A DNA stretch of 62,523 nt, filler included, from Neophaeotheca triangularis (GCA_054600435.1; 8 parts of 8 records of this genome joined end to end with filler, not necessarily neighbours in it); one strand, 5' to 3'; positions 3,621 to 44,714 are shown, counted from the first letter of the whole stretch. Program-made: numbers and translations. The notes: a model not told the origin generated them from the sequence alone.

Positions 3621-3665
3621 TTTTGCCGGTAAAACAGAGTTATACCATTAGAGTGGTTATACTAG

Positions 3666-13190: not shown

Positions 13191-13450
13191 CTGAAGGCTG
13201 CAGGTTAGTTTGAGGTCTTTTGGAATGATAGTTTGCGCCCATTCAGTGGGATTTTGAGTCTGGTCTCATCGTCTCTACAGATAGGCCGGAGCGGGAAGAT
13301 TGACTTGGGAGGCAATTGGGGCACACAAAGTGGACGTGGGGGGGGGGGGGGGGGGCCCTCACCATTAAACCTTAACCATGGTCTTTTCATATGAATCCGA
13401 CATGGGGAGCGGAGTTGACCTATTAACGTCGGTCGGGGGTTTGTAAATAA

Positions 13451-18500: not shown

Positions 18501-18502
18501 AT

Positions 18503-19918: not shown

Positions 19919-20039
19919 CGACTATCTTACTATCGAGATAGTCGATTTCTACTTACTATCTCGCCCGTTAAGTAGTCGAGCGAGGTCGACTGTCTCGACG
20001 CGAGCTAAGCGAGACATAGTAGGAGTCTTCGGCCGAAGT

Positions 20040-23000
20040 GTGGTTAGGATATAGCTTGACTACGTTTCGTCGAGACACTACGTTCCTTAGCTCTTAATCC
20101 TTCTATACTAACTAATGAAATCCTATGTTCGGGAAATCCCATAACACTATCCCTCTCCTAGGGCGCTTGTCCTAAGCGGTCCGTAACTTAGTAAATAGTT
20201 CTTTTCCCTACTTCTCTCTTCTCTTATCATCTTACGATGTCCCGCTCGAAACAAAACCGCCTTCGTCTTACTTAAGAGATTTAACATAATAGTTACCTAG
20301 TTCCGTTCCCTTATGATCGCTGTTTTTCTTCTAGCCACGACTATATCGCTATAGAGAGTTTTTCCTAACTGAAATGTTTAGAGTATGTTCGTTAGGGTAA
20401 GGTATACGTCAATCTGTTATAGGCTTCCCTAGATCATACTTAGGAGGAATACTAGAAAAAGGTTGATGAGGATAAGGAGGAGTTAGCTTATATTATGGCT
20501 CGGTTAATGTATAATAAAGCGATTCTTCGTTAGGCTAAGGCGCGTGCTCGCTATAAGGCTAAGTGTCTTATATTAGAGATAGACGTATTAGGAGAGCTAG
20601 AGTTAGAGGATTGTCCTACTATAGATATGACTATAGGTCTCTCTCCTACTATCTAGTTGTCGCTAGACTTCATTAATAACGCGACCGACCCTTTCCTACC
20701 TAGCGATACTATTATAATAGCTTCTAGTAGTTAAGTAAGTTATCCTTAGGTTCCTAAGTGTTTTTGCTTATAGGATACCCTTTCCACTTTATGAGGTAAT
20801 TCTAACTGTCTTTGTCTAGAATCTTTTCGACCTTATATTTAGCTTCTTCCTCTAGTAGATCGTGGTAGAAGGTGTCCTAGATAGGTATTTTAGTGTCTAC
20901 TAGTTCAAGTAAGGATATATAGAATACTAGATAGACTCTAGTATCTCTTAGGAGTTAGAGGAGGTAGTTGACTTTTCCTCTTTATTCTTTAACTAGAAAC
21001 GGTCCGACCTTAACATAGTCTAGTTTTCGTGTTCATCTCCTTATTTTCAGGTTTTTCATAAGTAAGTACAACTTATCCCCCTTCTTAAGCTAAGGTACTG
21101 TTTTAGAGTCTTTATGTCTTTACGATTCGAGTCGCTACTATAACTATATGATCTTGTCTTTCGCCTATCTATATACTTCCTATAGCTACGAAGACGTTTA
21201 TAGGGCTCTCTCTACGAGTAGTCCTAGCTTTAGCTCTATAAAGGTGTTTAGATCTTTTCTGAAGTTCGTATAGAACGGAGTTATGCCTATCATTTCTAAG
21301 GCATTGTTATTAAGTACGAGCTATACTATAGGTAAGAGTACTACCTAATTATCCTAAGCGTAATTAATATAATGTTATAAGTACGTTTTAAGGGATTAGT
21401 TCGAGCGTTCTATCTATCTATTAGTTTCTAGGTGAAATGCTGTTAATAGCTTGTGTTTCACTCTAATTGCTAAAATTAAGGTCTTCTAGTAGTTAGATAT
21501 GAAGAGCTTGTCTCTATCTATAATTAGAACTATTAGAATACTATAGTATTATACTAATCTGTCGAGTATAAGGTACCTAAGCTCTTCTATAGTGATTATC
21601 TCACTATAGGGAACGAAATGTGAATACTTCATGAGTCTATTAACTATAACTAAGATCAAATCATAGTCCTTACCTATCGATAGGTCTCTAGATCTTAGTA
21701 ACTTAACGATAAAATCTATCGTAACCTCGTTCTATAGTAGATCTAGTAGCTCCTAGAATTATTGGTTTCTATATTTAACATGTCTCGAAGCTTTGTTTTA
21801 TTAGTAGCTTATACATTTCTTGATGTACTCTAAGACCTTCTATCTCATTCTAGGAAATATGAAGTTATATCTAATATATTCTACTATTCTAGCGATTCCT
21901 AGATGTCCGTTAGTAGGTCTATCATAGTAGTCCTAGATGTACTAGCGTTCCTTTTCATTTAGAACCCTAAACTTCCTATGTTTAATAGGGAATTCCTTAG
22001 TGTTATCCTATAGTACTCGTAGTACTAAGTTAAATTCCTAAGGATTAGCGCTTAGGCTTCCGTCCTTATTAACTTTTAGTATATAGTATTACTATAGAAG
22101 GTGTCCTTCTATATAGTCGCTTCTTCTACTTAGCGTGTTAGTATGCCTATTGTCTTTTCTAGGAGTATAGACTATATCGAACTTATATTATCTAAGTAGC
22201 TCTAACTATCTACATTATTAGCGTAATAGTTCCTTAGTAGTTATGAAATATTGTAGGTTCTTATAATCTGAGTAAATAGTTAGTCTAGTTACTCCTTCAT
22301 AGTATACTCTCTAGTATTATAATACTATAACGATTATGAGTAGTTCTTTGTTATAGATCTCGTAGTTCTATTCTACTAGTAATATCTTCCTTAAGAAGTA
22401 AGCGATAGGGTGTCATTTACTTTCAACCTCCTATATAAAGTAAGCTCCTATTACTCTATTAGATATATTAGTTTCGATTTAGATAGGTCTCTTAGGGTTA
22501 AACATCCTAAGTATAAGGGTAGTTATACATAACTCCTTAAGCTTATTAAAGGATTGTTATTAAATCTTTCCCTATACAAATAGTGTGTCCTTCTTTATGA
22601 GGTTAGTTAGAGGTATAGCGAGCCTTAAATAATCCTACATAAATTTCTGATTATAGTTAGCTAATCTAAGGAATGCTTAAATGTCCTTAACTAACTTAGG
22701 TGTTAGCTATTCCTTAATTGATTGAGTTTTCTTTAGGTCTATTCGGATCCTAGTAGTGCTAATTATAAAGCCTAGAAAGTCGACTTCCTTTTTATAGAAC
22801 TCGTATTTCTCTAGTACTATTCTGAAGTCTACCTTGTCGAGTTGTTCGAATACTATATGTATATCCTTAGTATGTTATTCTCATGATCCTTTCGTGAAGA
22901 CTAATATATCGTTAATGTAAGCGATAATAGTAATATCGAGTAGGTCTTATAGGATGTCGTTAACGAGTTACTAATAAGTTACTAGGGCGTTTATAAGTCC

Positions 23001-24857
23001 TATAGGTATGACCTAGAATTCATAAAGTCTATAGCGCGTTCGAAAAGCTGTTTTCTACTCTTCCCCCCTTACTATTCTAACTAAATAGAATGTATCTTAG
23101 AGATCGATTTTAGTGAACTAGTGTGAACTAGTGAGTCGATCTCTTATCTTATTAATGTTAGGTAGTAGATAACGGTTTTTTGTGGTGATCGCATTAAGTC
23201 GTCTAAAATCGATAACTATTTATAGTTTTCCTCCTTTCTTTAGAACGAAAAACGGTAGTGAAGTAGCTAATAAAGTAGAGGGTCGAATCTATCCTTTCTT
23301 CATTTTTTCATCTAGCTATTATCATTACTCTTCGAGCTCTTTTTTAGATAGCGCGTAAAGTAGCCCCTATAGTATTTTTGTACTAGGCTAAATGTCGATT
23401 TAGTAGTCCTATAGTTAATATCTAGGTAGAGTAGCTATTCCTTCCTCTTCCTAGAAAAGGCGCTTCTATTTCCTAAATTCTCTAGGGATATCTAAAGGTA
23501 TATGACTTCCTTCCTTAACTCTTACCTATTAGTCCGTTTAGGCTAGTTCGGTACCTATAGAGTCTAATCCAATTCATATTGATATTATAGTCAATTAGCG
23601 ATATGTTTCGTTAATCTACCTTCTCTTATCTACTATCGATCGCTACTAGTATATAGGGTAGGTTGTAGTGACGTAACTATATCTGTCGAATATAAGTACT
23701 CATTTTCTCTAATCCACTATAGGATTATGTCGTTCTAACTAAGGAGTGCCTAGAACGATGTTATGTCTAGCTATAGGCATAACATCTAGGACAATTCGCT
23801 TGTAATACTTTTAGAAGACAAGTAGTAGTAGTACTATTTCGCTATCTATATTAGGTAGTAATGAGCTGTCTATAGCTATTAGTTCGTACCTACTATCTGT
23901 TTTCTTCTAGGTAGCTAGCCTATACTAATGTATAAATGTTTCCGAGATAAAGTTTCTACTAGCTCTAGAGTCTATTATAGTAAAGGTTTCATATCTATTG
24001 ATAGTATATGTTGTTTAGAAGACCGTTCCTAATACTATTTCATGTTAAGTATTTATGTTATTTAGTTCCTAACGCTCGCTCTTAGCGACAGGTCCTATTC
24101 GTTTTTTGAGAAGTAGGTAGATAAATCCGCTGTTTCGAGAGAGACTTCCTAGTAAAGGGGTCCGTCCTAAGGTCTAATTGTGACTTTTCCTTAGATTACA
24201 TGTGTAGTGATAGGTCCTTATGTAGTTGCTTTAATGTGTCCGAGAATCATCTTTTAGTTAACTAGTAGTAGAAATTTTTTACATAGTACTATTATCTATT
24301 AGTCTAAGGAATCCTATGCTTATTTCTTTATTTCTTAAAGCGTGATTTCTTCTTCTCTCTATTACTCCTATATAAGCTAGAATTCTCTATAATGATTCTT
24401 GACTATCTTGACTCGTTATCTTATTATGTATAGGATTCGTATCCTATCTAGTATAATATAGCCATTTTCTCTATAGAAAGTGCTTCCTATTAGTAGCCTA
24501 TCCTAGACAAAGGTAGTAGTGTTATACTCGACAGCGACCTTTTAGTAGTCCTAGAACATTACTTATAGTTATATAAGTATAGCTTCGAATTGATTAGGTT
24601 CTAAGTATCGTTTGCCTTAGATTACTAGGAACACTTCTTCATATAACTATATGATATGAATAACCATTTTCTTGATTAGACCTAGTCTATACATAATGAA
24701 CTCTACTACATCGTTGTCGTCTAGTTTGTTATCGTTAGTATAATCATATTCGGAGTTGTCTTTAGAATCTATTACTATCATGTCTTCTTATAATTCTAGA
24801 ATCTCTAGAGGTATCGATAGTCTTAAGGGGCTAATCTCTAGTGTTAGTATGATTGTA
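20040..24857 (-). mobile_element. RIP-inactivated chromodomain Ty3/Gypsy retrotransposon, copy B (inverted relative to A)
   Basis: 20720-24857 is the reverse complement of 13551-17690 with mainly transition differences; PPT AGAGGGATAG then TG at 20146 on the minus strand; LTR distal end uncertain. Confidence 0.92.
20237..20734 (+). pseudogene. RIP-damaged antisense Zn-cluster-like / coiled-coil ORF of Gypsy copy B
   Basis: MSRSKQNRLRLT*EI*HNSYLVPFPYDRCFSSSHDYIAIESFS*LKCLEYVR*GKVYVNL..; de-RIP gives C-x2-C..C..C-x2-C..C followed by a coiled coil. Confidence 0.65.
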
Positions 24858-24957
24858 NNNNNNNNNNNNNNNNNNNNNNNNNNNNNNNNNNNNNNNNNNN
24901 NTTAATTAATTAANNNNNNNNNNNNNNNNNNNNNNNNNNNNNNNNNNNNNNNNNNNN

Positions 24958-25074
24958 AACCCTAACCCTAACCCTAACCCTAACCCTAACCCTAACCCTA
25001 ACCCTAACCCTAACCCTAACCCTAACCCTAACCCTAACCCTAACCCTAACCCTAACCCTAACCCTAACCCTAAC
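24958..25074 (-). repeat. Telomeric repeat (CCCTAA)n, chromosome end of contig 3
   Basis: About 19 perfect units at the contig start. Confidence 0.97.
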
Positions 25075-25078
25075 TCCT

Positions 25079-25145
25079 GACAGATCATCTCACGCTCAAG
25101 ACAGATCACCTCACGCTTCAGACGGACAGATCACCTCACACTTCG
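25079..25145 (+). repeat. Three short direct repeats GACAGATCAYCTCACRCT between the telomere and the first ATG
   Basis: Copies start at 25079, 25100 and 25125. Confidence 0.85.
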
Positions 25146-25191
25146 AATACATACGAAAAGTCTACCTGACCCAGACCATCATTCGCCCATA

Positions 25192-26589
25192 ATGTCAGAC
25201 GAACCTTCCCGCAGGCTCTGGCAGGAGCTTTTCCAGAGCAAGAGAAGCCTCGAGGAACAAGTGAGAGACCTACAGGGTCAAGAGGAGATGCACCAGAGAG
25301 CCATGCAAGATCTTCGAGCCGAACTCAACAGCAAGGACGCCGAGCTCGACAGCAAGGACGCCGAGCTCGCGAGTAAGGACGCCGAGCTCGCGAGTAAGGA
25401 CGCCGAGCTCGCGAGTAAGGACGCCGAGCTCAAGAAGAATGACGCCGAGCTCAAGAAGAATGACACCGAGCTCAAGAAGAATGACACCGAGCTCGAGCAG
25501 ATGGACGCCGAGCTCAAGAGGAATGACAGCGAGCTCAAGCAGATGGACACCAAGTTCGAGAGGAAGGACACCGAACTCGCGAAGATGCGAGACGAACTCG
25601 AGGATATGCGAGACGAGCTCGAGCAGAAGGATACGCTTTTGCGAGGCACGCAAGGACGATATGAACGAAGCCAGCGAAAGTACAACGAAGTGTGGAACAA
25701 GTTGCACGGGCAGCAGAAACGACCGAGGCCTGAGGAAGAGGACGACGATGATCGCGGCCAGTCGGTTGACAAAGCCGCAAGAATCGCTAGCCACACTCCT
25801 GTGGGGAATCCCCCCCTTGAAGAGGCTCAAATATCCACCAGGGACCCTGCTCAGCAATCCCCAGCGCCAGCAACAGCGCCAATTCCGGCAGCAGCAGCAC
25901 CAGCACTAGCAGCAGCACCAGCAGCAGCAGTAGCACCAGCACCAGCACCAGCACCAGCACGAGCACCAGCAGCAGCACGAGCACCAGCAGCAGCAGCAGC
26001 AGCAGCAGTAGCATCAGCACCAGTACCAGCACGAGCACCAGCACCAGCAGCATCAGCAGCACCAACACCAGCAGCAGCGCCAACAGCAGCGCCAATTCCA
26101 GCAGCTCAAGGAGCACCAGGCACGAGGAGAGGCTATGGCGTCTATGTCCCCGATGGTGTCGGCCTCAGCGCCAAACCAATCGATGAAATCTGCCCTGGGA
26201 TGACCGCCAACATCGAGAAAGCTGTGAAGCAATACGACGCCTCCACAAAGAAAAGCTTTCCGAAGAAGAAGACGACAGTCTTCGAACTCCTACCGTACAA
26301 GTACTGCGCCAACGTCCGAGCCAAGAAGCTGACCGCCCAGCACGCCGTGGTCGAGGGCAAGCCTGTGGCATTCGCATGTAGCGAATGCATCCGGAGCGGC
26401 AGCCTTTGCTGCTACCAAATCGAAAAGGATGCGAGTGCCGCCAGCTTCCTCCTGGTGCTTGCACCACTTCCCCTGGAGTACCGCGTGGTTGGAGCTCAGC
26501 CGAGCGACGTAGGTTATTACGTCGCGGCCGAAGGGTCTGCTGTTCGGGAAGGTGGACAGGTCAAATACGAGAAGATGCCTTTCGAGTAG
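25192..26589 (+). CDS. Telomere-adjacent 465-aa protein: heptad coiled coil, Ala/Pro linker, C-terminal Cys cluster
   Basis: 21-bp tandem repeats encoding (KDAELAS/NDTELKK)n at ~25318-25630; AP-rich repeats 25860-26110; YCANVR..FACSECIRSGSLCC; intronless. Confidence 0.85.
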   Translation: MSDEPSRRLWQELFQSKRSLEEQVRDLQGQEEMHQRAMQDLRAELNSKDAELDSKDAELASKDAELASKDAELASKDAELKKNDAELKKNDTELKKNDTELEQMDAELKRNDSELKQMDTKFERKDTELAKMRDELEDMRDELEQKDTLLRGTQGRYERSQRKYNEVWNKLHGQQKRPRPEEEDDDDRGQSVDKAARIASHTPVGNPPLEEAQISTRDPAQQSPAPATAPIPAAAAPALAAAPAAAVAPAPAPAPARAPAAARAPAAAAAAAVASAPVPARAPAPAASAAPTPAAAPTAAPIPAAQGAPGTRRGYGVYVPDGVGLSAKPIDEICPGMTANIEKAVKQYDASTKKSFPKKKTTVFELLPYKYCANVRAKKLTAQHAVVEGKPVAFACSECIRSGSLCCYQIEKDASAASFLLVLAPLPLEYRVVGAQPSDVGYYVAAEGSAVREGGQVKYEKMPFE

Positions 26590-26888
26590 GGGTAGTTGTT
26601 CGGTCGAGTAGGGGTGGTTGTTTGGCGATAGATACGAGTGAGTAGCTACTTGAAGACTGCACCTTTGTGCCGATGCCTACGAGCATTTGCACTCACCCAC
26701 CGATTCATTCCACACCAAGAAAAAATCTTCTCCGTGACCCGGCTTCCACGACGCATTTCCCATCAAGTACATTCTTCCGTGTTTCAACTCTTTGCTCCAT
26801 GAACACTCCCCTACCCTACCAACCACTGTCCTATCTATTCATCTGCCGCTCCCGCTTCTTCCTGCTGACCCTTGGCCTCTGCATCACC

Positions 26889-29800
26889 CTATGCATCACT
26901 ACCATCCGTCACCGTCTCCTCCGTCGTCGTGTCCCACAACTCTATAGCCTCCATCACCGTCTCCTTCATCACCGTCTCCTTCATCACCGTCTCCTCCGTC
27001 ACCGTCAATGCTCTTACTCCCGCCTCGTCTCCCTCATTCAGAATTGCTTTCGTGTTTGCCTTGTCGCTCTTCGCATCATCCGCCTGCTTCTTCTTGTCCT
27101 TGTCCAACCTCGCATACCTGTAGCGCTTACGAACTTGACCAAATGCCATTTGCGCAAGCTCAGCGCCCGAGACAGCATCATCGCTCTTCTCAATTTCGTC
27201 GACCGTCGCCTGCGTGACTTGTAGGTAGGGGCTGACCTTCATGGCCATTCTCCACTCCTGCATCTCGTTGTAGGTGTTCTCCGTGAACAAGCGAATGACT
27301 TCCACGGGCTCGGTCTGTCCAATGCGATACACGCGATGGCTTGCCTGCACCTCCGAGGCCTCGTTGAACGCAGGCTCCAAAATCACCACCGTGCAGCACT
27401 TGTGGTGCAGATCGTGGCCGGCAATGTTGAGATTGTACGTGGTGATCATAATCATCGGCTCGTCATCCTTGTTGAATTGGTTGATGATTGGGTCGCGGTC
27501 TTTTGGGATGATCAGGACGTCAAGGATGATAGAGGTGATGCCCAGCCAACCAATGAGGGTGTGGACGAACTCAGCGGAGCGAGAGGAGGAGCACATGATG
27601 AGGATCTTCTGTTTGCCCGCAGGTTTTTTGTCGGCAGAGAACTGAACCTTCCAAATCACCAAGCAAAGGTACGCGAGCTTTGGTGCACCCCAAAGGAAAG
27701 CGCGAAGGTATTGGGCGGGTGTCTCGAGCGGGTCCGTGTCGGATGGGTCAAGCGCATTCTTCTTGCGCATCTCATCGACCAACTGGTCAAGAAGCATGTC
27801 CCTGATCTTCCTGAACCACGTAGTGTTCCGGGTGTAGTACGCGGCAAGACCGAGATGCGTGGGCAGGACCGAGAGCTGCGGGAAACGACGTGAGACGGCC
27901 GCCTGAGCGGCACTGGCAAGACGCTTCTTTGGCTTGTCTGACCGGGCCGCCATTGTCACGTCGGATTGCAGCAGCTCTTCGGCGTCCAGCTCCGTCTTGA
28001 GCGTTGCCAAGAGCTTCTTCCACTCGACCACCTTGGCGATCTTGCCCTCGCGGAGATCGTATGCATCTTGCTCCTGTTTGGTGTAGACAAGATCCTGCGT
28101 GCGGATGTGGAAAGTGGGCATGTCGCCTCCGCAAGTGACAAAGCTGCCGTCTTCATCCTCAACCAACGTCCCGTGGCTCCTGCTTAACATCAAGGTCTGG
28201 AAGATCATCTTGACACGCTGCGCGGCTTTTTCCGTGTCTCCATGATGATCATCGTTGTCGGCGTTGAACGCAATGTGCGGCGAGATCCAGTAGTTGAAGG
28301 CGGCTCTGGTCAGACATTTGACCTGGTCCTTGGACAGCGCGTTGTACAAGTTGTAGGGGTTGGCCTTGAAGGGAGGCGAGGTGGCTCCGTCGGCCTTTTT
28401 CTCCTCATCGGTGTAGTTTCTGAATCGCCGCATGTTGGTGTCGAAGCGCTCTTCGTGTGCCATGGAGGGTCGTCGTTTGAGATTTCTCCTTTTGCAAGAC
28501 GGAAAATGCTGGCAAAGCAGACGGACCTCTTCCTCGACGTCGTCGCCGGCGTCGTCGGCGTCGCAGGTGCATTCCCTGTAATGGCGCGGCACCCTATCCT
28601 TGAGATGCGGGCCGACGAGGTTGATGAAACGCGTAAAGACCTCGTCGTCGTCGGGATTGGCGAAGACTTCTTGGAGGGCGCGCTTTTCGTCTTGGGTCAC
28701 GGCGTAGACCTTCAGCACGTCGTCCGGCAACTTGCCGTACACAGTAGCCCGGTAAAGCTCGTTACCTTGACTAGTAGCTTGCTCCAAGTCAAGATCCTGA
28801 GTATCGAGCCACTCGGGCCTTTCGAAGAAGGCTAGATGCCCACGCACATCCTGCAGCGAGTTGTAGCAAGGTGTGGCTGTCATGCACCACCTAAAGCGTG
28901 CTTGAAACTTGGACAAGTAGGTGCCACGCGCTGTCTTCTCGTAGTTCCTAAGCGACTGGCTTTCGTCGACCACGATGCGCTCAAAGAGCCCGGCAACGTC
29001 GCTGTGCTCTTCGATCTGACTAATCTTGAGGATTTGGAGCTCGTTGATCGTCATGATGATGACGTTGTATGCACTGCGAAAAGCCTGTACATGTGAGTCC
29101 AGTTTCGTGAAGCGGACAGAGCCATCCTCCGGTCCGTTGTCATGCGCAACTTGGCCGTGTTTCCCGTCGCTTCCATGGCGCCAAACTCTCCACCTCGCGG
29201 GCAGAGCCTCTCGCGCCATCCTCTGCCACTTCTGCTCAAGGCCACTTGGCACGACAATCAACGTCGGTCGGGACGGCGTCAGAGCCTCCTCTGTCCTGCC
29301 TTGAAGCATCCAGAACAAAGTGGCCAGGTTGATGAATGCGAGAATCTGGTACGTCTTGCCGAGGCCACAGTCATCGCCACACCACCCGCCGCCATAATGG
29401 CGCTCCATCTGCACCGCCCAATAGTTGAAGATCTTCTGATGCGGCTTCAGTGCCTTGCCAGGAATTCCAGGGCCTTTGGGGTGGTTCTTGTCCGGGCGGA
29501 GGGCGAGGCAATGGACAGGCGAGGTTTGATCGGCTGGGTCCAGCCCAAGGTACTCTGACAGCCACTCCACAGATTGTTTGGCGTTCTGGGGTCCAATGTT
29601 CACATTAGACAGCATGTTCTGAACATCGCGTAGCATCAAGTCGCGGGGATCAACGTCTCCGGCTTCGCCAGCGTCGAAAAGCCGCTGTCTTCCGTCGGCG
29701 GCGTTTGCAAGCTTGTGGAAGTCTTCGCGAATCTCTGCGGCACCCTCCGAGTCCCGGGCATTGTCCTCGCTTACTAGGGACATGGCTGTCTGCAAAAGAT

Positions 29801-31091
29801 GGAGCGTCTCGGCAGAAGACCTGTTGACAAAAGGAAGCGCACGTCCGGATGCTTTCAAGCTGGGATCCTCGCGCTCATCATCGGCGTCCGGGATGTTGCG
29901 CAACTCGGGAAAGTAGCTGTCGTGCAAGAGCAGTACGTGCAACCGTCGCTCCTCCGTGTACCAGTTCTGGCTAAAGTCCTTCCACAAGGGATCGGTAGGA
30001 GGGTTGATGTTCTCGGGGCCCTCAAAGCCAAACTGGACCAGCGCGTAGTCTTGTGGCATAATCACTGCACTGCCATAGACCTCGCGCAGCCAGAGCGTCA
30101 CATCAGTCAGTGATGGGAGCTGAGCCAGAGGTCTCTCGTACTCTTGCACGTTTGCGACGGCCGCGGGCCCCTCCGCAGCCACGTTGTCTTCATCTGCCCT
30201 TTGCCTCCTCACCACAACGACAATCGGAGCCAGTTCGTCCTCATCTTCAGTCTGCAGGCGCTCCTTGTCTCCTCCTTTTGCTGCCAATCCCGATGCCTTG
30301 TCCTGCCCTTTGTCTCCTCCTTTGGCTGTCAGTCCCAATGCCTTGTCCTGCTCTTGCTGATTATGCTCTTCATCGCTGCCAGCCCCGGGATCCTTGCTAG
30401 CAGCATCCCCGCGGCCTTTCTTTTGCTTCTTGCGCTGTTTCTTACCCTTGCGCGAGACGTTGAACGAGGGATATGCAGCTCGGAATTCCTCGGTCCTGGC
30501 ATCGATCTCAGGGCGCGGAGACTGCTTGTTCTTCCCGCCCGTGAAGTATCTACCACTGCTGCGCTCTGACTGCAGTAGTCTGATGAGGGCATAGGCGTAG
30601 CGCAGCTTCTTCTCATCTGAGTCAATCGCTTTGGACGCCGACGTTGCTGCTGGGGTCGATCTGCCCTGCCAGGTAGGAAAGGTAACCTGCTTGCTCTTTT
30701 CGATGGCGCGGACGATTCTGTACACCGCGAAGCCCCAGAGCTCAGCCCAGGTCATGTTGGCCATGTGCCCACGGGCAAAGAGGGTAGCGTCGTCTTGGGC
30801 GTAGTGCTGGCGACGGCTTTGGACTTCCTGCACAGTCTGCTCGGGGTTTGGAGGAGCCGCTATTGGTGTGGAATTGGCTGAAATTTGATCGCGGCCTTCG
30901 AAGAAGAGTATCAGGTCGTTCATGAAGATGTCTGCAAAGAACTTCTGCATCGCTTGCTTGTCGGAAGCGCTCAACGACACGACCAAGCCGTCCCACGTTC
31001 GTGTTGGTATCCAGACTGCTGCTGCGCCGGATGAACCCTGAACATTGTATATGCCATGTTTCTGGCTCCAACCGGCCTTGTCGCCTGCCAT
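26889..31091 (-). CDS. SNF2-family (SF2) DNA-dependent ATPase, ~1400 aa, intronless
   Basis: Q motif LKPHQ, Walker A GDDCGLGKT, Ia PTLIVVP, Walker B IVVDESQ, III CMTATP, IV KILIMCS, V IAGHDLH, VI EVQASHRVYRIGQ; likely start is ATG 31091 (MAGDKAG). Confidence 0.93.
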   Translation of the reverse strand: MAGDKAGWSQKHGIYNVQGSSGAAAVWIPTRTWDGLVVSLSASDKQAMQKFFADIFMNDLILFFEGRDQISANSTPIAAPPNPEQTVQEVQSRRQHYAQDDATLFARGHMANMTWAELWGFAVYRIVRAIEKSKQVTFPTWQGRSTPAATSASKAIDSDEKKLRYAYALIRLLQSERSSGRYFTGGKNKQSPRPEIDARTEEFRAAYPSFNVSRKGKKQRKKQKKGRGDAASKDPGAGSDEEHNQQEQDKALGLTAKGGDKGQDKASGLAAKGGDKERLQTEDEDELAPIVVVVRRQRADEDNVAAEGPAAVANVQEYERPLAQLPSLTDVTLWLREVYGSAVIMPQDYALVQFGFEGPENINPPTDPLWKDFSQNWYTEERRLHVLLLHDSYFPELRNIPDADDEREDPSLKASGRALPFVNRSSAETLHLLQTAMSLVSEDNARDSEGAAEIREDFHKLANAADGRQRLFDAGEAGDVDPRDLMLRDVQNMLSNVNIGPQNAKQSVEWLSEYLGLDPADQTSPVHCLALRPDKNHPKGPGIPGKALKPHQKIFNYWAVQMERHYGGGWCGDDCGLGKTYQILAFINLATLFWMLQGRTEEALTPSRPTLIVVPSGLEQKWQRMAREALPARWRVWRHGSDGKHGQVAHDNGPEDGSVRFTKLDSHVQAFRSAYNVIIMTINELQILKISQIEEHSDVAGLFERIVVDESQSLRNYEKTARGTYLSKFQARFRWCMTATPCYNSLQDVRGHLAFFERPEWLDTQDLDLEQATSQGNELYRATVYGKLPDDVLKVYAVTQDEKRALQEVFANPDDDEVFTRFINLVGPHLKDRVPRHYRECTCDADDAGDDVEEEVRLLCQHFPSCKRRNLKRRPSMAHEERFDTNMRRFRNYTDEEKKADGATSPPFKANPYNLYNALSKDQVKCLTRAAFNYWISPHIAFNADNDDHHGDTEKAAQRVKMIFQTLMLSRSHGTLVEDEDGSFVTCGGDMPTFHIRTQDLVYTKQEQDAYDLREGKIAKVVEWKKLLATLKTELDAEELLQSDVTMAARSDKPKKRLASAAQAAVSRRFPQLSVLPTHLGLAAYYTRNTTWFRKIRDMLLDQLVDEMRKKNALDPSDTDPLETPAQYLRAFLWGAPKLAYLCLVIWKVQFSADKKPAGKQKILIMCSSSRSAEFVHTLIGWLGITSIILDVLIIPKDRDPIINQFNKDDEPMIMITTYNLNIAGHDLHHKCCTVVILEPAFNEASEVQASHRVYRIGQTEPVEVIRLFTENTYNEMQEWRMAMKVSPYLQVTQATVDEIEKSDDAVSGAELAQMAFGQVRKRYRYARLDKDKKKQADDAKSDKANTKAILNEGDEAGVRALTVTEETVMKETVMKETVMEAIELWDTTTEETVTDGSDA

Positions 31092-31523
31092 GCTGGCGGC
31101 TACGGCGAGAGAAGGAGAGGCGAGAGAGGGAGAGGCAAATCGGTCGGTCGGAGACGTTTGGGGTATGGAGTTTGTGGTAGTAAGTAGTGGTGGCTGATGT
31201 AGACGAGATATGAAGAGAGAGAGAGGTGTTAGTGAAGGGGATGGAGTTTCGAAAGTGAAAAGGTGTTGTGGGAGGGGAGAAAACAAACACAAGGCGGGGG
31301 TGAATAGCCTAAATATCCGCGAGCTTTCAAGGCCTGAGGCCACCAAGCTTGGACCTCCCAACGCATAGGCAGACAGCAGACATGCATGCGTTGCAGCGCT
31401 ACCTACCTGAACAAACCTCATCTCCATAGACACCACAACAGCCTACACCAGCGTGAGTGTCGTGCACAACTCCTTCGTCCCGAGACACCAGACTGACAAA
31501 CCCTCACAGCGCTACCAACGAGC

Positions 31524-32336
31524 ATGGACATCTCCCCGATAAGCAAGACATGGGAAACGGCTCTCAGGCGCCTTGCCGACGGGAGATACGACGAGGGCGC
31601 TTTTTCCCCAAGTGAGCGGCGGCCACAAACGATCCGGGACTACGACTGTGCTGGATTCATGGGTGGCAAGGGCAAGCCAGACCAAGAGACGGACTTGTGG
31701 ATGACGACAGACCTTGCGGATGAGTACATGCGAGTGCTGATGACAAGCCTCGTGGTCGACGTGGACGAGAAAGTCTGCGTCTATCCCACTTGTGTGCTAG
31801 ACAGCCTGCACCGGTTCAAGGGCCAAGAGCTTCTTCGCCAGATTGAAGAATTGATGTCCGTGGGCGACAAGCTTCCCCAGCCCGACAACCTCCACACGTT
31901 TGACCGTCTGGTCTTCCTTGTCTTCGACGAGCCTTCCCGCCACTACACCACGATGGTGGTATGGCCCAAGGAGGAGCGCGTCGTGCTGTACGACAGTTTT
32001 TACGGCAAACGCTCCGCAGGGGAAGCTGAAGGGCTGATCAAGGGCTGGCTAGAGGCCATGGGCAATCTGCGCGGCTCCGGCAAGGTGCCTCAGTGGAAGT
32101 ATTTTTCTGGCGACCAGGGCAGCTTTCAACAAACCAACTCGAACGACTGCGGCGCCGTCGCGGCCATGGCGGCGAGATGTGCTGTTATTGGGGAGGTTCT
32201 TCGTCCAGCATCGGGAACCGCGTTTGCAGTCACAAAGCTAGCCAGGGATTTTCGTTTTCGCATCGTCGCCGAGGTCCTCGCCAACAAGATCAACCCAGAG
32301 GACAGCGAGATTCCCGCTTGGTTGCAAGGCTCGTAG
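31524..32336 (+). CDS. Ulp1/SENP-like (peptidase C48) SUMO/Ubl-specific cysteine protease, 270 aa
   Basis: Catalytic order His (RHYTTMVV), Asp (LYDSF), oxyanion Gln and Cys (QQTNSNDCGA); WMTTDLADEYM matches the WLxDxxIxxY box. Confidence 0.88.
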   Translation: MDISPISKTWETALRRLADGRYDEGAFSPSERRPQTIRDYDCAGFMGGKGKPDQETDLWMTTDLADEYMRVLMTSLVVDVDEKVCVYPTCVLDSLHRFKGQELLRQIEELMSVGDKLPQPDNLHTFDRLVFLVFDEPSRHYTTMVVWPKEERVVLYDSFYGKRSAGEAEGLIKGWLEAMGNLRGSGKVPQWKYFSGDQGSFQQTNSNDCGAVAAMAARCAVIGEVLRPASGTAFAVTKLARDFRFRIVAEVLANKINPEDSEIPAWLQGS

Positions 32337-32742
32337 ATTCAGCGCAGCAGAGTCGGCGTACCAGCTCGCTTGAGGCCTCGCTTGGGGGTTTCATTGAGAC
32401 GGGATCGGGGTACGCGGAAGCAAGCGGAGGAGCATATGGCGGAGCACAAGACAGATGGACAGGTGGACGGATAGACAAGTAGACAGGTAGACTGGCAGTG
32501 GTATCAAATGGAAGCGTACAAATGCTCGCGGATATTCTTGTCTTTGTTATCTCGATAATGAGATGAGCTATGTACTTGAACGTAAGCAGGTGAGGTCGGA
32601 AGCATTGCGCAACCGCCGATCCGCCTTAGCTACTACCAACGCCCCACATCCAATCCAAATCCGGGCAATCTCCCGCTGCCTGCCCCCTGCCTGCCCTAAC
32701 CTGGCTCTGCTTTGCTTGTCGTGTACCTAGGGACCTCACCTC

Positions 32743-34129
32743 CTACAACAATGCAGCAATCGCGTCACGGCACGAACGCAGCTCGTTCATCGCCGTCGTC
32801 TTGCGCTCAAGGTAGGCCGTCTCCGCTTTGCGAAGACGGTTTCGAAGCTCTCTGATTTCGCTGCCCAGGTCTCCCATTGCCGAGGACATTGGCAGCACGG
32901 AAAAGCCAGCAACGGTCATCTGGCCCGCCTCCAGACCTAACAATGCTCCGTCGATGGCGCTCGTTGCCTGTCTGACGAGAGTATCCAGATTGACTGATCC
33001 TTGAGCGCGCTGACGAATCTGCTCTAGGCGAGAACGGGCATCAGTCGACGGGCCAGAGCCAACAGCGGGCATCAGATTCTTCGCTGTGGTGCACAACCGG
33101 GCCAACTGCGTACCCAACTCTCTCTTTATACCCGCGCCCTTTTTGCTGCCATCGAGGCTAAGGGAGCTGAGCTGCGCTGGTCGTGGTGTTTGCTGGGACG
33201 CCGGCTTGGAGGCTGTGGTATGTGTTAGCAAGATTCAGGTTTAGTTTGTGGCGCTTTGGACAAGGGAACGAACCTGGTGATGGTAAAACACCGAATCCGA
33301 ATCCTCTCTCTACACCGGGCATCACGCCCCTACGCTGCTCCAAATCCCAAAGGTCAAACGCCAACTTGCCGCCGCGCACACGGTACTTCAGCCAGTCTGA
33401 CCGCCTACTCGCAGGGGTGGTAGGAATCTTGCCCGCGGGCTTCCCGTCAACCTTCGTCCACGACATGGTGGCGGATCGCCGGCCCCATGCTGCCAAATCG
33501 TACTTCTGTCCTTTATCCGCATCTTCAGCTGCCGCTGCATCCGCTCCCTTGACCACCTTCGCCTTGACCACCTTCGCCTTAGCTGCCTCCATTTCCGCCG
33601 CATCCGTCTTCAGCTTTGGAGTTTGATCCGTCGCCGAATTGGACTTTTTCACCTTCTGCCTTTTGTCCTTTGCCTTTTGCTGGGCAGGGCTCTTCTTGCT
33701 CAAATCTCTCTGCTCAGGTAGGTCGTCTAGGGTGAGCTTGCTCTTCTTCTTCAGTGGTGTCTCCGCATGCGACTCGTTGATGCCGTGGAGCTTTCGTTTG
33801 CCGGAAGAGCTTCTCGTCGTGGGCTGCATGTCCGTGGGCTTGCTTTCCTCGTCTTCCTCGTCTTCCTCCTGCTTCTTCTTCGTCTTCTCTGCCACCTGCA
33901 TTGGCGTGGTGAAGGGCTCGGCATCATCCATGTCGACATCAGAGTCTAGGGCCTGCTGATTGAGCGCGTGTAGTTGTCCGGCAAATTCGGGGTCAACTAC
34001 TGGGTGCGGGTTCCCGTCTACAAATTTCCCTTTCGCATTGAAGGGAGGGTCGCTGTCTTCGAACTTTTTAATCATATCTGCCTTCAGGTGTAGTCGATGA
34101 GCGTCGCTGTCTCCGAAGTCTTGAGCCAT
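32743..34129 (-). CDS. Uncharacterised 441-aa charged/disordered protein with a C-terminal coiled coil, 2 exons
   Basis: Intron 33213-33273 (GTTCGT..GCTAAC..CAG) joins ORFs 33158..34129 and 32743..33231 in frame; KRK and KKK NLS-like clusters, acidic run. Confidence 0.75.
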
Positions 34130-34149
34130 ACTCGCGGTCAGGAGTAGTA

Positions 34150-34500
34150 GAGGTGAAGTTGAAACAAAGTCGCAAACAGTTTGGTAGGTAGGAGTGGTGG
34201 AGGTGGAGTTGGAGTTGAAACAAAGTCGCGAGTATTCAGGTAGGTAGAATTGCCGCGTGCGCGTGAGACCGCGAACTCAGGCTTCGTTCCACTTCACTTG
34301 CAAGTTCCCGTGGGAAATTATTCACCGTCTGAAGCTCGAACCAAAGCAATGTCTGTCTGTCCCGTCCGCGGTCAACTGTGGTGTCGTGAGGAAGAGGTGG
34401 TGGAGGTGGAGTTGAAACAAAGTCGCGAATAGTCAGGTAAGATTGCCGCGTGCGCGTGAGACCACGAACTCACGCTCCGTTCCACTTCACTTGCAAGGCT
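34150..34500. repeat. Nested direct repeats upstream of the 441-aa gene
   Basis: AGTTGAAACAAAGTCGC occurs three times (~34157, 34213, 34410); a ~55-bp TTGCCGCGTGCGCGTGAGACC..CACTTGCAAG block occurs at 34250 and 34443. Confidence 0.85.
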
Positions 34501-34574
34501 CCGTGACGCGCAACCTATTGCATGGCTTTTGTGCACTGTGCGTTAAAGGCTATAGCATACCCTGGGATCTGCCA

Positions 34575-34881
34575 TGCTTACCTCCGAGCATTCACGCCCA
34601 CCTCCGAGCAATCATTCCCACCTTCGAGCCATTCATCACGCCAACCTCCGAGCCATCATGCCCACCTGGAATCCGCCCTGCCCACCTCCGAGCCATCCAT
34701 CACGCCCACCTCCGAGCTATCACGCCCACCTCCGAGCCATCCATCACGCCAACCTCCGAGCCATCACGCCCACCTTCGAGCCATCCATCACGCCCACCTT
34801 CGAGCCATCCATCACGCCCACCTTCGAGCCATCCATCACGCCCACCTTCGAGCCATCCATCACGCCCACCTTCGAGCCATC
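34575..34881. repeat. 24-bp minisatellite (CCCACCTTCGAGCCATCCATCACG)n running into the contig end
   Basis: Degenerate 20-24-bp units from 34575 become perfect copies at 34769-34881. Confidence 0.92.
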
Positions 34882-37800
34882 NNNNNNNNNNNNNNNNNNN
34901 NNNNNNNNNNNNNNNNNNNNNNNNNTTAATTAATTAANNNNNNNNNNNNNNNNNNNNNNNNNNNNNNNNNNNNNNNNNNNNGGGGGGGGGGCTGTCGGCC
35001 TCCGTTGTAATCGGGTCGGTCTGTGTGGTGATTTCCGGATATTGTCGGAATGACGGCGACATGGTTGGTTCGCATCGCTGCATCCTCGTCGTCGATTGAT
35101 CAGCCGAGTGCGCGCTTGCAAAAGACAAAGAACCTCACTCATCGGGAGCATAGACAGACCGCTAGGCAACACTTTTATCCATACTAGCGACCACAACCAG
35201 AAGCAATCCCACCCTCACAACCTCGCGCCCGCCCCTTTTCCTCTCTCCCCCAAACCCATATCCAACACCTCCTCCCAAGCCACCTGCAACCCCGCCCCGC
35301 GAACCCAACACAGACCCGCCGACCGAGTCCACAGCCTCAAGTACCCCCTTAGCAGCTGAAAAAAAAAAAAAAACGCACCCACGACGCCTCCTCACCCTCC
35401 ACCCCTAGCACTAGCACCAGCAAAACCCCCACCCCAGATCCCCCATCCCCTATCCCCCCGCCCGTTTCAACAGACCCCAAAACCCCCCACCGCAGCCCTA
35501 AACCCCTGACCCCTGAATCCCCTACCCCCAAGCCCCTGCTCCCCCGCACCACTACCTCCCAGCGCCCCTACCCTCCCCTGGGTCAGTAGAGTCAAGCAAA
35601 AGCCAAACTCGCAGCGAAGGGCAGTTCGGGAACTTCAGCACCTAGGGTGCTAAGAAGTTTGGGTGTGGTATTATTCTAATGAAAGTTTTTTTCCTTTTTT
35701 TTTTTTTTTCGAGTAGCGGGTAGGAGGAGATGCGGACGAGATGGTTGGCGGAGACGTGTTGTTCGCCCTGGTCTTTCGTCTGCTCTTTTCGTCTACTCTT
35801 TAGTCTGCTCTTTGGTCTAGGGCGAAGATGTAGGTTCGGAGTGTGTTTTCACTGCTAGAAGTTGTCGTTTTTGGTTTGGAAGAACTCGAGGAAGCCGGCA
35901 TAGGAGTGATTACTCGGCTCTTTGCCGAGGAGGTTGGCCTAGTCTTATGGGTTTCGGAGTTAAGTAGCGATAGGGGGGTTTTTTATTTGGAAGCGTTTAG
36001 TTGTAAGGGGCACTAGTGGGTTTCGTAGTTGTCGTAGTGAGTTTAAAGTCAAGAGGGAGGAGGTAGTGGGCTATATGTAGTTGTGAAAGCCTAAGTCGTT
36101 AAAGAAGATATGGAGGGTTTTGTGGTCTGTCTTCTGCCAGGAAAGCGGTCGCTTTATCTATAGAGGCTGACGAGATACCTCTTAGATAGAAGGAAAGGTT
36201 TGATATCTGAGTCTAGGTAGATGGACTGTCTTTGCCGTTGCTATAGTCGTGAGAGGTCGGGTCAGTCTTGAAGTTGAGCCTGCGGTTATACGTAGGAGAG
36301 AGAGGAAGCATTCGCGGATTACTGTAATGATTGACGTATAGTTAGACGAGCGTTTCGCGAGACTCTATCGAAGGGTTTGAGAATCGACATCTTGTATTGT
36401 TCTGAGAAAGACCTACGCTTGTATCTTTTTACTTCTTTTTTTGGTCATTCAAAGCATTTACAAGCACCTACCTACTTGACAAGACGGGGCATACGAGGTG
36501 AACGCCTCACGATCAATCAGCAACACGGCATTAGCTGACTCGGCGGATTCGGAGTCTGACTTCGGCCCGGGTAGTCTGTCGCGGACCTGCCATTGTTTTA
36601 ACGACATCTTTTCCCTTGGAGGGAGATCCATGTAGTGACACAGCTCAGACAGGTCCAGCTATCATCTACACTCCGATAACGTTTATCTGGGAACACGGAG
36701 AAGCTATCTTCACGTATTCAGCCTCGAAAACATCGTCCAAATTTCCCTCCCTCCTACGCCGAGAGCTACATGTCACACCAAAGCGGGTTGAGGCTCCATC
36801 AGACCTACCGGCCGAAGAACTTGGCTATTAAGCGCTCAAAGGCATATCCTCTCTAACTATGCCACGTAAGGATCTCTAAAGAATAGAGGCCACTAATCAG
36901 CTTGACTGCTCGCATTTTCTGACCATCTCCTACCGGCGGATAGCTTGAGACTACACTGTTTACGTTGTGCTCTATGAATCAACCTGCTAAAGATGCCACA
37001 ATACGCCCATGGCTAGTAAGTAGAGTCTCCGACTACTTGTCAGATCCCACGAGCTGCCTCTCGCGACGAATGCTAGGTGGAGTTAGACCGCGTATTGGGG
37101 GAAAATCACCTATCCAGCTGACTGCGTGGTTGCAGCGTGAGTATCTTCTCCAGTGGCTGTAAAACGCTGCCATGGTAGATGCAGTAAATCAGGTCCCCCG
37201 TGGTTATAAAATCTCCGTCCCCCGGGCGGGTTCGGATGAGAATTTTCTTCTGCTTTGTCGCGCCTAGTGCATGCATGCACGGAAGATACTATCGATTGCG
37301 CTGGATTTGACGAAAACGGTCATCGTCGCTTTGCCCGTACTGTACTCCTTAGGAAGCCAAAGATCCAAGATGAAACCAGACGATATCAAACATGGGGGAT
37401 GCCGATGGATTGCGCTGGTTTGCTTCCGATTCGCGGGCGCCGTTAGCAGATAATGGCGCAGCGAAATGCGCAACTTGGACGGTGAAAGCATTGGAAGTCT
37501 CCCCACTTTTTCTCGACAGCAGCTATTCAATCGGGTTGCATTGAAGCGAACTATGCCGGAATTGTGTGGGTTAAAGTTAGTTGCCTACCCCTGTCGAATT
37601 TAGAATCATATCAGAGTCCACCGTTACCGGCTCACGAAATGAATGTCAAGATGTGTGGCCTATAGAGGGTATGGAGGAAACGGCTTGCGCTGTTGTCCAG
37701 CTTTTGCCCGCGAGTATCGATTATTTTCTGAGAGTGGCGAGGTCTCCATGCGAGCCGCGAGAGTTGATGAATGCATGGCACCACCTCTTAAGGCGAGGCC

Positions 37801-39254
37801 GTCTTCGACCCGTTGGTTGTCAAAGCACTGACGTTGAAGCGAAGCATGAAGTGGTCAGTCGAGGCAAAGTGCTCGCTCGCTACCACGAATGGGTATACAT
37901 GTGCAAGCTTTTTGGGAGAGGCATTGAGAAAGAATAGTGCGCCCAGGCTGTTTTGTGGAGAAATCTGGCGGACTCGGGACTCTGACCGTTTCCGAAGAAG
38001 TGTTGTGGCGAATGGAATTAGGCGTGTGTGTGTAGTAGCATGTGAGGAGAAAGGCAGATGGATAGAGAGACAATCGGTAGTCTACCGAAATGTCTAGGAT
38101 ACCTGTCGGTACTAGAATATGAGTACCTAGACACTTGTACTCGGGTTCTGCCTAAGCGGTCTAGCGTTGTGACGGCGAAGGAGACGCGAAATATGTCCGA
38201 ATAGACTCGAAGGTGTAGGTATACTACCTCCTAGTACTACCTCCTAGTACTGTAGTAGAAGGAGTGAAGGACGTGGCCAGTAGTGGGGATGGTCAACGAT
38301 GGAAGGGAAGATGGCAAAGTCGGTACCTCAGGCCTCGACCGGGCTTAGCGCCTACTAGGGGTCCACCAGCTAGCGGAACCCGAGCCGGGAAGGTCAAAAG
38401 GTTGAAGCAAACCTAAGGCCGAGCCAATCAGGGCCATAGAAAGCGACAGAACGGCAAGCAACTTCACGGAGCCCACTCCGCCTCCGTTGCGCGACAAGTC
38501 CGCTAACCCTCTTCCGGACGACAAGTGGTGAGGAACAGGGGCGGGGGTGTAAAAATAAAAATGGCATGTTTACAAGACCATGGCAAGCGAGCCGTGTATT
38601 TGAAATGCCATGGCCGACGGCGAATAGGCCGAGTGCGCAGCGGAGACAGGTCCGCCGAGTTGCACATCATCTCCCCAACCGGCTTCACAGTAGGCGGCTT
38701 GTCATTATCATGTCATTATTATGCTACCTACATAGGTCGTTACAAGACCGTGTTACTTACGTTGCAACTTGCCAGCTCTCATTGGAGGGGGTGTTTGTTT
38801 TCCTCACCTACTAACTACTGTTTGTTACTCTCCCGCTACCGGCGGTCAAGGTAGTGGAGCCTCCGCCCGGATCTCCCCCTCCCTCCCCCCGTTTGAACTA
38901 GTGATGCGAGGCATATGCTATCGCCAAGTATTTGATTAGCAAGAGTTTTGCCCTTGTTTAGCGAGTAGGAGGGAAAAGCAGGTCGAGGTCGAGGTACGAG
39001 GGAAGGCAGCTCAGCTAAGGCGCCTAGGCAGGTATACAACGAAAAGTTTAGGTACAAAGGTAAGGCTCGCCCATTGCGTTGCGTTGCATCTCGCGTGTCC
39101 CGTCCCGTCCTGCCCCAAGTCCCCTGCACACGTCACGTTACCTTGGAGGCGGGAGAGTAATAAGAGTCGAGCGAGACGGGAGGGAGTCGAGACACGACAC
39201 GCCCGTCTGAGAGAGCGGACTCGGAGCTACCTCCAGTCCAAGCATTTCAACGTA

Positions 39255-39263
39255 CTACTACCA

Positions 39264-39320
<57 letters not shown>
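39255..39320. repeat. (CTA)n microsatellite
   Basis: About 20 CTA/CCA units upstream of the YTH gene. Confidence 0.9.
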
Positions 39321-39321
<1 letters not shown>

Positions 39322-39683
39322 CTTGCTACTACTTACTACCTTACACTAACGTACACTCTATTCTCGCCATCATCATCTTTGTCAAAGGCAGCTCCAGCTT
39401 TCCCCAGCCCTTGTTGTTGTTATTGCTCTACTTTTACCCACACATACTCACCTTCCTTTTTCCCACTATCGCGCATCTTCTCGAGCTTCTCGCATACTCG
39501 CCTACGCGTCTGAACTGTGAGGTACCTACCCACTACCTACCAGTACTGTACTCTGTCGCTATCTTGAAACACACTGTACGCTGCTGCTCCGCAAAGCGCG
39601 ACTAGACCGACCAAAGCGTGTTACCGGCTTGTTACGACCTCACCGCATCCACCAATCGCGTCCTTTCTGACAGCTTTGTCAAG

Positions 39684-44475: not shown

Positions 44476-44506
<31 letters not shown>

Positions 44507-44714
44507 TGGGGAAAAAACCAAAAAAAAAAAAAAAAATAAAGAACAACAACACCCAAAACCCAAAAAAACAAAAAAAACCCCCAACAACGCCAACAAAACC
44601 NNNNNNNNNNNNNNNNNNNNNNNNNNNNNNNNNNNNNNNNNNNNTTAATTAATTAANNNNNNNNNNNNNNNNNNNNNNNNNNNNNNNNNNNNNNNNNNNN
44701 GGGGGGGGTGGGGG

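Follow-up and report, generated by a model that had tools for sequence, protein, structure and literature searches.

A telomere-adjacent contig of Neophaeotheca triangularis with genes for a predicted RING-less SNF2-family ATPase and a putative Ulp1-like protease

Introduction

Telomere-linked helicases such as yeast Y'-Help1 and the fungal TLH proteins (tlh in S. pombe) have cores of the RecQ type or the Y'-Help1 type, and Ulp1-like protease domains are carried by DNA transposons, among them MULE/KI-MULE and Zisupton. Here we describe a contig of the fungus Neophaeotheca triangularis (GCA_054600435.1) that invites comparison with both. It is the third contig (contig 3; positions 24958-34881) of the window, by which we mean the whole 62,523-nucleotide stretch of DNA that was analyzed, and it begins with a telomere followed by four predicted genes, here called g1 to g4. 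The second gene, g2, encodes a predicted SNF2-family ATPase that lacks a RING domain and belongs to a sparsely distributed clade, and it lies head-to-head with g3, the gene of a candidate Ulp1/SENP-like cysteine protease. A first-pass annotation had described the interval as a telomere-capped four-gene cassette and proposed that it forms a distinct subtelomeric or selfish module that remodels and deSUMOylates chromatin. We read it, with moderate confidence, as a dispensable subtelomeric island that carries four intact, lineage-specific genes.

As in the Y'/TLH systems, a large superfamily 2 (SF2) ATPase gene lies within a few kilobases of the telomere. Its core, however, is of the SNF2 and not the RecQ type, with SNF2-rel_dom and Helicase_C as its only helicase-type domains in Pfam, in agreement with the SNF2 ATPase of the first-pass annotation. 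A further difference from Y'/TLH is that g2 is not common to the other two chromosome ends in the window and gives no sign of amplification, although this is weak evidence. Contig 3 resembles the MULE and Zisupton transposons in having a small C48-like open reading frame (ORF), g3, in a variable genome compartment; it differs from them in that no transposase, terminal inverted repeats or fusion were found within it, one of its two ends being an assembly break.

Results

A telomere and four closely spaced predicted genes

The features of contig 3 that bear most directly on g2, g3 and the telomere are listed here in window coordinates.

24958-25074, no strand: telomere, 19.5 copies of AACCCT (Tandem Repeats Finder (TRF), period 6, 100% matches), at the very start of the contig
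25079-25144, no strand: 25-bp tandem repeat, 2.8 copies, directly inside the telomere (TRF, 86% matches)
31091-26889, minus strand: g2, 1400 aa (P0001), predicted SNF2-family ATPase (ORF and intron-less database model)
~28806-29441, minus strand: SNF2-related lobe of g2 (PF00176, E 4.2e-25, 88.9 bits against a cut-off of 24.9)
~27318-27617, minus strand: Helicase_C lobe of g2 (PF00271, E 3.8e-07, 30.8 bits against a cut-off of 23.5)
30265-30355, minus strand: 45-bp coding tandem repeat in the N-terminal region of g2 (TRF)
31092-31523, no strand: divergent intergenic region of 432 bp between the start codons of g2 and g3, presumed to be a shared promoter
31524-32336, plus strand: g3, 270 aa, putative clan-CE/C48-like cysteine protease (ORF and intron-less database model)
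31941-31943, plus strand: candidate catalytic residue H140 of g3
31992-31994, plus strand: candidate catalytic residue D157 of g3
32130-32132, plus strand: candidate catalytic residue Q203 of g3
32148-32150, plus strand: candidate catalytic residue C209 of g3

The left limit of contig 3 is a real telomere; a telomeric 18-mer matches the window 57 times, compared with 0 matches expected. The four ORFs that follow are arranged on the plus, minus, plus and minus strands with intergenic gaps of 299, 432 and 406 bp, as the first-pass annotation had it. Its count of a single intron for the whole interval also agrees with our models, in which only g4 needs one (61 nt, canonical); the protein database has intron-less models of g2 and g3, both listed as from a contig of 9,924 bp. 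Likewise, the contig is GC-rich (0.565) and free of the signature of repeat-induced point mutation (RIP), as had been stated: TpA/ApT is 0.55 and (CpA+TpG)/(ApC+GpT) is 1.30, whereas the corresponding indices of the other two telomere-adjacent regions of the window are 2.09/0.15 and 1.60/0.12. The G+C content at third codon positions (GC3) lies between 0.64 and 0.71 in g2 to g4, and genes on neighboring contigs range from 0.59 to 0.67. The overall value of g1 is lower (0.59, with 0.69 in its C-terminal part) because of its internal repeat. No Rfam family or tRNA was detected on the contig.

The closeness of g1 to the chromosome end raises the possibility that telomere adjacency is secondary, that is, that a chromosome lost its terminal part, was healed by telomere addition de novo, and so came to have ordinary internal, lineage-specific genes at its end. 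The telomere at the edge of the contig would then carry no information on function. The reading frame of g1 is open leftward to 25081, beside the telomere, and its ATG is only 117 bp from the telomere repeats; next to the telomeres of the other two telomeric contigs, AT-rich repeats mutated by RIP extend for kilobases (TpA/ApT 2.09 and 1.60), and contig 3 has none. Both observations fit such an event. The 25-bp tandem repeat between the telomere and g1, which a BLAST comparison did not find on the other contigs of the window, looks instead like a settled junction. In addition, a short contig from a second strain (sequencing run X2, described below) ends at ~25074, where the telomere repeat starts, a weak hint of the same junction in that strain, in which case any healing event would not be recent. 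We regard healing as doubtful, and as compatible with the reading of contig 3 as a subtelomeric island.

The edges of the proposed cassette are assembly edges, because the interval 24958-34881 is exactly one contig, whole, of 9,924 bp. The window is made up of eight contigs separated by seven identical spacers, each consisting of an N run, TTAATTAATTAA and a second N run.

1-13450; 13551-24857; 24958-34881; 34982-44600; 44701-49552; 49653-54069; 54170-58325; 58426-62523: contigs of the window
24858-24957: artificial spacer to the left of contig 3
From 34882: artificial N spacer to the right of contig 3

The right limit of contig 3 is an assembly break within a minisatellite, and the DNA from 34882 on is unrelated to it because another contig begins beyond the spacer. 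The check for a transposase or recombinase beyond 34881 that the first-pass annotation had proposed therefore does not apply. The capped-cassette look of contig 3 is largely a contig-boundary effect.

g2 as a member of a RING-less SNF2 clade

The predicted product of g2 is a true SNF2-family ATPase, as first annotated. Both lobes score above the Pfam gathering cut-offs, and the motifs are intact (Walker A GLGKT, DExx box DESQ, and motif VI QASHRVYRIGQ), with G91, K92, D222, E223 and R780 invariant across a 12-member alignment of the family. When compared with the Protein Data Bank (PDB), g2 matched 64 SNF2-type chains at E ≤ 0.001; these matches are generic (ERCC6, ISWI, CHD1L, Snf2 and SMARCAD1) and cover single lobes only. 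The ORF remains open to an upstream ATG at 31427, but the 336-nt extension that this would add (31092-31427) has no coding signature, since its GC3 is 0.48 versus 0.70.

The two ATPase lobes are separated by a family-specific insert of ~400 aa, and Pfam gave no match besides the lobes at E ≤ 0.1, neither RING nor HIRAN among them. The combination of an SNF2 lobe, a Helicase_C lobe and a long insert between them is also that of Rad5, Rad16 and Ris1 (Uls1), proteins of this type being the best matches outside the g2 family. g2 differs from them in having no RING, no HIRAN and, by a crude scan, no conserved SUMO-interaction motif (SIM), and in that its insert is predicted to be helical and specific to the family; the absence of the RING places it outside the Rad5/Rad16/Uls1 group.

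The best non-self match in a word-based search was a RING-bearing protein from Mycena, with 31% identity over 29% of the query. An exhaustive HMMER search recovered 25 representatives at E ≤ 1e-30 (self included), of which the best non-self sequences are 36-38% identical to g2, the alignment extending across the ~400-aa insert. A Pfam comparison at E ≤ 0.001 detected neither a RING nor a C48 domain in any of 21 relatives. Of the 20 relatives that were looked up, 18 fall in one-member clusters, the others in clusters of two and three. Eight relatives are named, from seven species: Hortaea werneckii (two proteins), Paraconiothyrium brasiliense, Elasticomyces elasticus, Zasmidium cellare, Lophiotrema nucula, Cryomyces minteri and Friedmanniomyces simplex. 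All are annotated as hypothetical or under generic names. We confirmed four of the species as Dothideomycetes and take the remaining three to belong there as well. No relative was found on viral contigs.

In a quick maximum-likelihood tree of 20 rows with a midpoint root, the g2 family forms one group (Shimodaira-Hasegawa-like approximate likelihood ratio test (SH-aLRT) 94), and five outgroup SNF2 proteins, of which three were checked to be RING-bearing, fall outside it. Within it, g2 groups with the two Hortaea proteins (SH-aLRT 99), and terminal branches reach ~1 change per site. On these comparisons, g2 is a member of a sparse, patchy and fast-evolving RING-less clade whose eight named members all come from Dothideomycetes, if our placement of the three remaining species is correct. 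From the nearest relatives of g2 alone, the source ascomycete is probably itself a Dothideomycete.

These data bear on the alternative that contig 3 holds core orthologues present in single copy (Rad5/Rad16/Uls1 and Ulp1/Ulp2), near a telomere only by chance. In its favor, the best word-based matches outside the g2 family are RING-bearing, Rad5/16-like SNF2 proteins of basidiomycetes, although at 29-31% identity over ~30% of the query. Against it stand the lack of RING and HIRAN, the separate position of the family in the tree, a nearest relative at 38% identity and clusters that are mostly singletons, together with the lack of g3 relatives in two word-based searches and the broken state of g2 in strain X2, both presented below. 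The comparison with core Rad5/Rad16/Uls1 that the first-pass annotation had proposed as a check thus identifies g2 as no orthologue of these proteins, and we hold the alternative to be extremely improbable.

An AlphaFold2 model of the insert, built from a 23-row alignment, is mainly helical with a predicted local distance difference test score (pLDDT) of 69.8. Foldseek returned nothing from the PDB at E ≤ 0.001, and a VIA-align wide comparison gave helical-hairpin matches only, with a best Z of 4.3; we do not propose a new fold on this basis. The disordered N-terminus of g2 contains, at ~30300-30500 (minus strand), a RKGKKQRKKQKKGRG run that resembles a nuclear localization signal (NLS), as well as a SIM-like EDEDELAPIVVVV stretch (acidic residues, then IVVVV) that stays below the acid threshold of a crude regular-expression scan for SIMs. 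The same scan produced one match in g2, within the insert, and flagged no N-terminal SIM in eight relatives.

g3 as a putative Ulp1/SENP-like protease

We are fairly confident that g3 encodes a divergent protease of clan CE, family C48, and its predicted activity is most likely that of a SUMO/ubiquitin-like-protein isopeptidase. The order and spacing of His, Asp, Gln and Cys in g3 are those of the Ulp1/SENP proteases, as is the Q-x-N-x2-DCG stretch. All five PDB matches at E ≤ 10 are SENP1 catalytic domains, with E-values of 0.36-0.97 that are not significant alone. In each of the three alignments printed for these five, H140, D157, Q203 and C209 fall on the His, Asp, Gln and Cys of SENP1, and the active-site stretch of g3, Q-Q-x-N-x2-D-C-G, aligns with that of SENP1. 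By the language-model features of the Atlas, 27 of the 30 nearest clusters belong to the C48 set, the top score being 0.97 with 202 shared features.

In other respects g3 departs from the Ulp1/SENP proteases. Its Pfam match to PF02902 (Peptidase_C48; E 0.0027) is below the cut-off, at 18.0 bits compared with 20.7, and is partial, the aligned part of the profile being positions 94-183 of 217. In place of the Trp that comes after the catalytic His of Ulp1/SENP proteases, g3 has Tyr. The N-terminal half of g3 gave only a chance match to laminin in the PDB. No relatives were found by word-based searching, which returned g3 alone among 1641 candidates of near lengths and none of 8000 candidates of longer lengths at E ≤ 10. 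A single-sequence AlphaFold2 model had a mean pLDDT of 40.3 and was too poor for a fold search. Thus the earlier designation of g3 as a Ulp1-like protease agrees with the His-Asp-Gln-Cys set and with the Atlas neighbors, and is not matched by a Pfam score above threshold.

State of g2 in a second strain and copy number

All sampled words of contig 3 occur in sequencing run X1, which may be its source. The X1 contig that corresponds to it, of 9,389 nt, has a word depth of 128.1, compared with 123 and 124 for two other long contigs, which is a weak hint that contig 3 is single copy. The amplification at chromosome ends that the first-pass annotation had suggested checking by copy number left no sign, as the telomere repeat is all that contig 3 has in common with the other two telomeric contigs of the window, and the depth in X1 is unremarkable, the latter being weak evidence.

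Run X2 comes from a second strain and has the same organism label as X1. Its 6,118-nt contig carries a copy of g2 that differs at ~3-5% of positions and bridges two deletions, one in which 1164 nt are replaced by 1 nt and one in which 344 nt are removed; neither is a multiple of three. The first 2,737 nt of this contig lie on contig 3, after which it runs past the 5' end of g2 into unlike sequence at the place of g3 in X1. In the X2 strain g2 is broken and is not followed by g3, and the frame-broken copy implies that g2 is dispensable there. X2 has no cover over 31435-32388, which includes g3, or over most of g4; we do not use this as evidence. In a third run with this organism label, X3, no contig aligned to contig 3 and the share of its words was 0.00, which does not prove absence. 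The substitutions in X2 show no RIP pattern, since transitions are balanced (A>G 26, G>A 31, C>T 23 and T>C 29).

Loci of g2 relatives in metagenomes

Recurrence of the SNF2-C48 pair was examined in one metagenome scan, a thin test, which provided 10 loci with g2 relatives (numbered from L001). Locus L001 has an intact, 1145-aa homologue of g2 together with 10 kb of upstream sequence, the side on which contig 3 has g3. These 10 kb contain no C48 gene; an M14 carboxypeptidase, a Ras-like GTPase and unassigned ORFs are found there instead. Searches by tblastn with g1, g3 and g4 matched none of the 10 loci at E ≤ 0.01. The motif N-x(1-3)-DCG occurs in g3 only and at none of the loci, and none of these short contigs contains telomere repeats. 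Neither the 282-aa divergent ORF of L007/L008 nor the 245-aa ORF downstream in L003 resembles g4 or g1. The idea of an SNF2+C48 module with conserved synteny receives no support from these loci, as there is no C48 gene or motif at any of the 10 and none of the 21 g2 relatives is fused to a C48 domain. In the portion of the literature that was available, we found no description of a subtelomeric SNF2-Ulp1 pair in fungi, which does not prove its absence from print.

Loci L002-L009 fall into at least three versions of a segment of at least 5 kb, which have diverged to 84-92% DNA identity, with 99% identity between L007 and L008. The g2-family gene in them is decayed, with in-frame stops and frame shifts, and the loci have in common two internal duplications of the gene and an inverted fragment. 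Either orthologous pseudogenes of related fungi or a repeated element could explain them. The sequence downstream of the SNF2 gene is also common to L001 and L003, and orthologous loci in related fungi fit this better than transposed copies do.

The metagenome loci are relevant to the proposal that contig 3 represents part of a mobile or selfish element, or of a telomere-linked family amplified in the manner of Y'/TLH, with the SNF2 and Ulp1-like proteins as its own machinery. Such an origin would suit the patchiness of the g2 family, in which all 20 relatives looked up are in clusters of one to three and branches are very long, as well as its frequent decay (the X2 copy and L002-L009) and the carriage of Ulp1-like domains as transposon cargo; moreover, the contig is truncated, and the rest of an element could be missing. 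On the contig itself, however, the four ORFs fill the available sequence with gaps of at most ~750 bp, the long ORFs have no Pfam match to a transposase, recombinase or reverse transcriptase, and self-BLAST revealed neither inverted repeats nor long terminal repeats of at least 80 bp. Nor do the wider comparisons favor an element: among the three chromosome ends visible in the window, the other two telomeric contigs have only the telomere repeat in common with contig 3, the X1 word depth resembles that of other contigs (weak evidence), no C48 gene lies beside g2 relatives, the 10 loci, on short contigs, have no telomere repeats, and the downstream sequence common to L001 and L003 is better explained by orthology. 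We consider a selfish or mobile origin unlikely.

Flanking genes and repeats of contig 3

The remaining features of contig 3 are the two outer genes and the repeats to the right of them.

25192-26589, plus strand: g1, 465 aa (ORF and translation)
34129-33274, minus strand: g4 exon 1, Lys/Glu/Asp-rich, low complexity, with basic NLS-like runs (ORF, GC3 0.65)
33273-33213, minus strand: g4 intron, 61 nt, phase 1, GTTCGT...CTAAC...CAG (sequence reading; joins two open frames)
33212-32743, minus strand: g4 exon 2, helical C-terminal part, stop included (open frame 32743-33234)
34143-34186, no strand: partial third copy of the direct repeat upstream of g4 (repeat search)
34199-34312 and 34396-34505, no strand: direct repeats upstream of g4, 87% identity (self-BLAST and repeat families)
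34592-34881, no strand: 20/24-bp minisatellite, ~12.9 copies (TRF, 80% matches, 12% indels); the contig breaks inside it

At its N-terminus g1 has a heptad coiled coil, for which TRF shows a 21-bp coding repeat in 12.5 tandem copies at 25318-25579; an Ala/Pro-rich linker at 25889-26094 and a C-terminal domain of ~140 aa with seven Cys follow. Pfam gave only sub-threshold coiled-coil matches for g1, for which no large homology search was made, and the C-terminal part had no Pfam match at E ≤ 10 and no PDB match. The Atlas offers DUF8257/DUF3716 as a lead for the C-terminus (scores 0.93/0.87), unconfirmed by Pfam. The exact 465-aa model is absent from the protein collection. g1 is probably a nuclear protein, as predicted from its basic NLS-like runs.

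Two observations on g1 and its surroundings were made in the X2 strain. The region of the 21-bp array, 25318-25856, is not of constant length among strains: X2 contigs lack 21, 42 and 137 nt of it. Near 26594, between g1 and g2, several X2 contigs have a summed depth of ~412 compared with ~62 elsewhere, and this sequence may be repeated in X2.

The predicted spliced product of g4 has 441 aa and is probably also nuclear. The best Pfam match of exon 1 has an E-value of 0.28, exon 2 has no Pfam match, and no PDB match was found; no large homology search was made for this gene. A model consisting of exon 1 only is absent from the protein collection. The direct repeats and the minisatellite of the first-pass annotation are present, at 34199-34505 and 34592-34881, the unit of the latter being 20/24 bp.

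Other contigs of the window

Contig 1 (1-13450) is a second chromosome end, with a telomere at 1-117 and a RIP-mutated array of ~160-bp tandem repeats at ~2020-3618 (RIP indices 2.09/0.15). It also contains a MAL-like sugar cluster composed of an alpha-amylase/glucosidase gene (4949-6784, minus strand), a sugar transporter gene (8752-9534, plus strand) and a Zn2Cys6 regulator gene (9677-11269, plus strand). Contig 2 (13551-24857) is AT-rich and RIP-like; its ends are inverted copies of 4,152 bp with 90.8% identity, and a 213-bp inverted pair lies inside. Such a structure may be that of a large palindrome or of an element carrying long inverted repeats. On contig 4, an ordinary, intact gene for a YTH1-like RNA-binding protein with YTH and RRM domains occupies 40316-41758. 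Contig 6 (49653-54069) is a third chromosome end and consists of strongly RIP-mutated, AT-rich DNA (GC 0.26) followed by TTAGGG repeats at 53900-54068, with one interruption of the array near 53948-53954.

Discussion

Contig 3 combines an intact SNF2 core, a complete C48-type residue set, a head-to-head arrangement of g2 and g3, and adjacency to a telomere. The reading that we prefer, and hold somewhat above even, is that of a dispensable subtelomeric island with four intact, lineage-specific genes. Several points weigh against it. The gene models of the contig are predictions from sequence alone, and g3 has a sub-threshold Pfam score, no relatives in word-based searches and a poor structural model. 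Copy number and chromosomal context rest on indirect hints, namely word depth and the three chromosome ends in the window. Because the contig is cut within the minisatellite, a recombinase, a transposase or more copies could sit just beyond it. Finally, the diverged and decayed g2 relatives seen in metagenomes are also compatible with a selfish or repeated element.

If the domain assignments are correct, g2 would be a double-stranded DNA translocase that uses ATP to remodel protein-DNA complexes, and g3 would remove SUMO or another ubiquitin-like modifier. The two may be co-expressed from the 432-bp divergent region, presumed to act as their common promoter, and may act on chromatin; the basic NLS-like runs of g1, g2 and g4 suggest that these three proteins are nuclear. 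Sequence comparisons gave no evidence that the genes of contig 3 move as a unit or act at telomeres. A more far-reaching proposal is that g2 and g3 are a working pair that represents an undescribed class of dispensable, fast-evolving, telomere-proximal elements of Dothideomycetes, repeatedly gained, decayed and lost, which would act on SUMO-modified chromatin against subtelomeric silencing or for end recombination. The frame-broken X2 copy and the decayed metagenome copies would be examples of such decay, but we consider the proposal as a whole highly unlikely.

Contig 3 itself illustrates that joining contigs end to end can create the look of a bounded 'cassette', and the results obtained for it are useful for annotation. 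If the SNF2-protease pair did prove to be a telomere-linked module, the selfish genes at fungal chromosome ends would gain a non-RecQ class, and SUMO removal would be linked to subtelomere dynamics. What the analysis supports is an uncharacterized, RING-less SNF2 clade with an inter-lobe domain of its own and an orphan Ulp1-like protease, both predicted, on a variable and RIP-free chromosome end.

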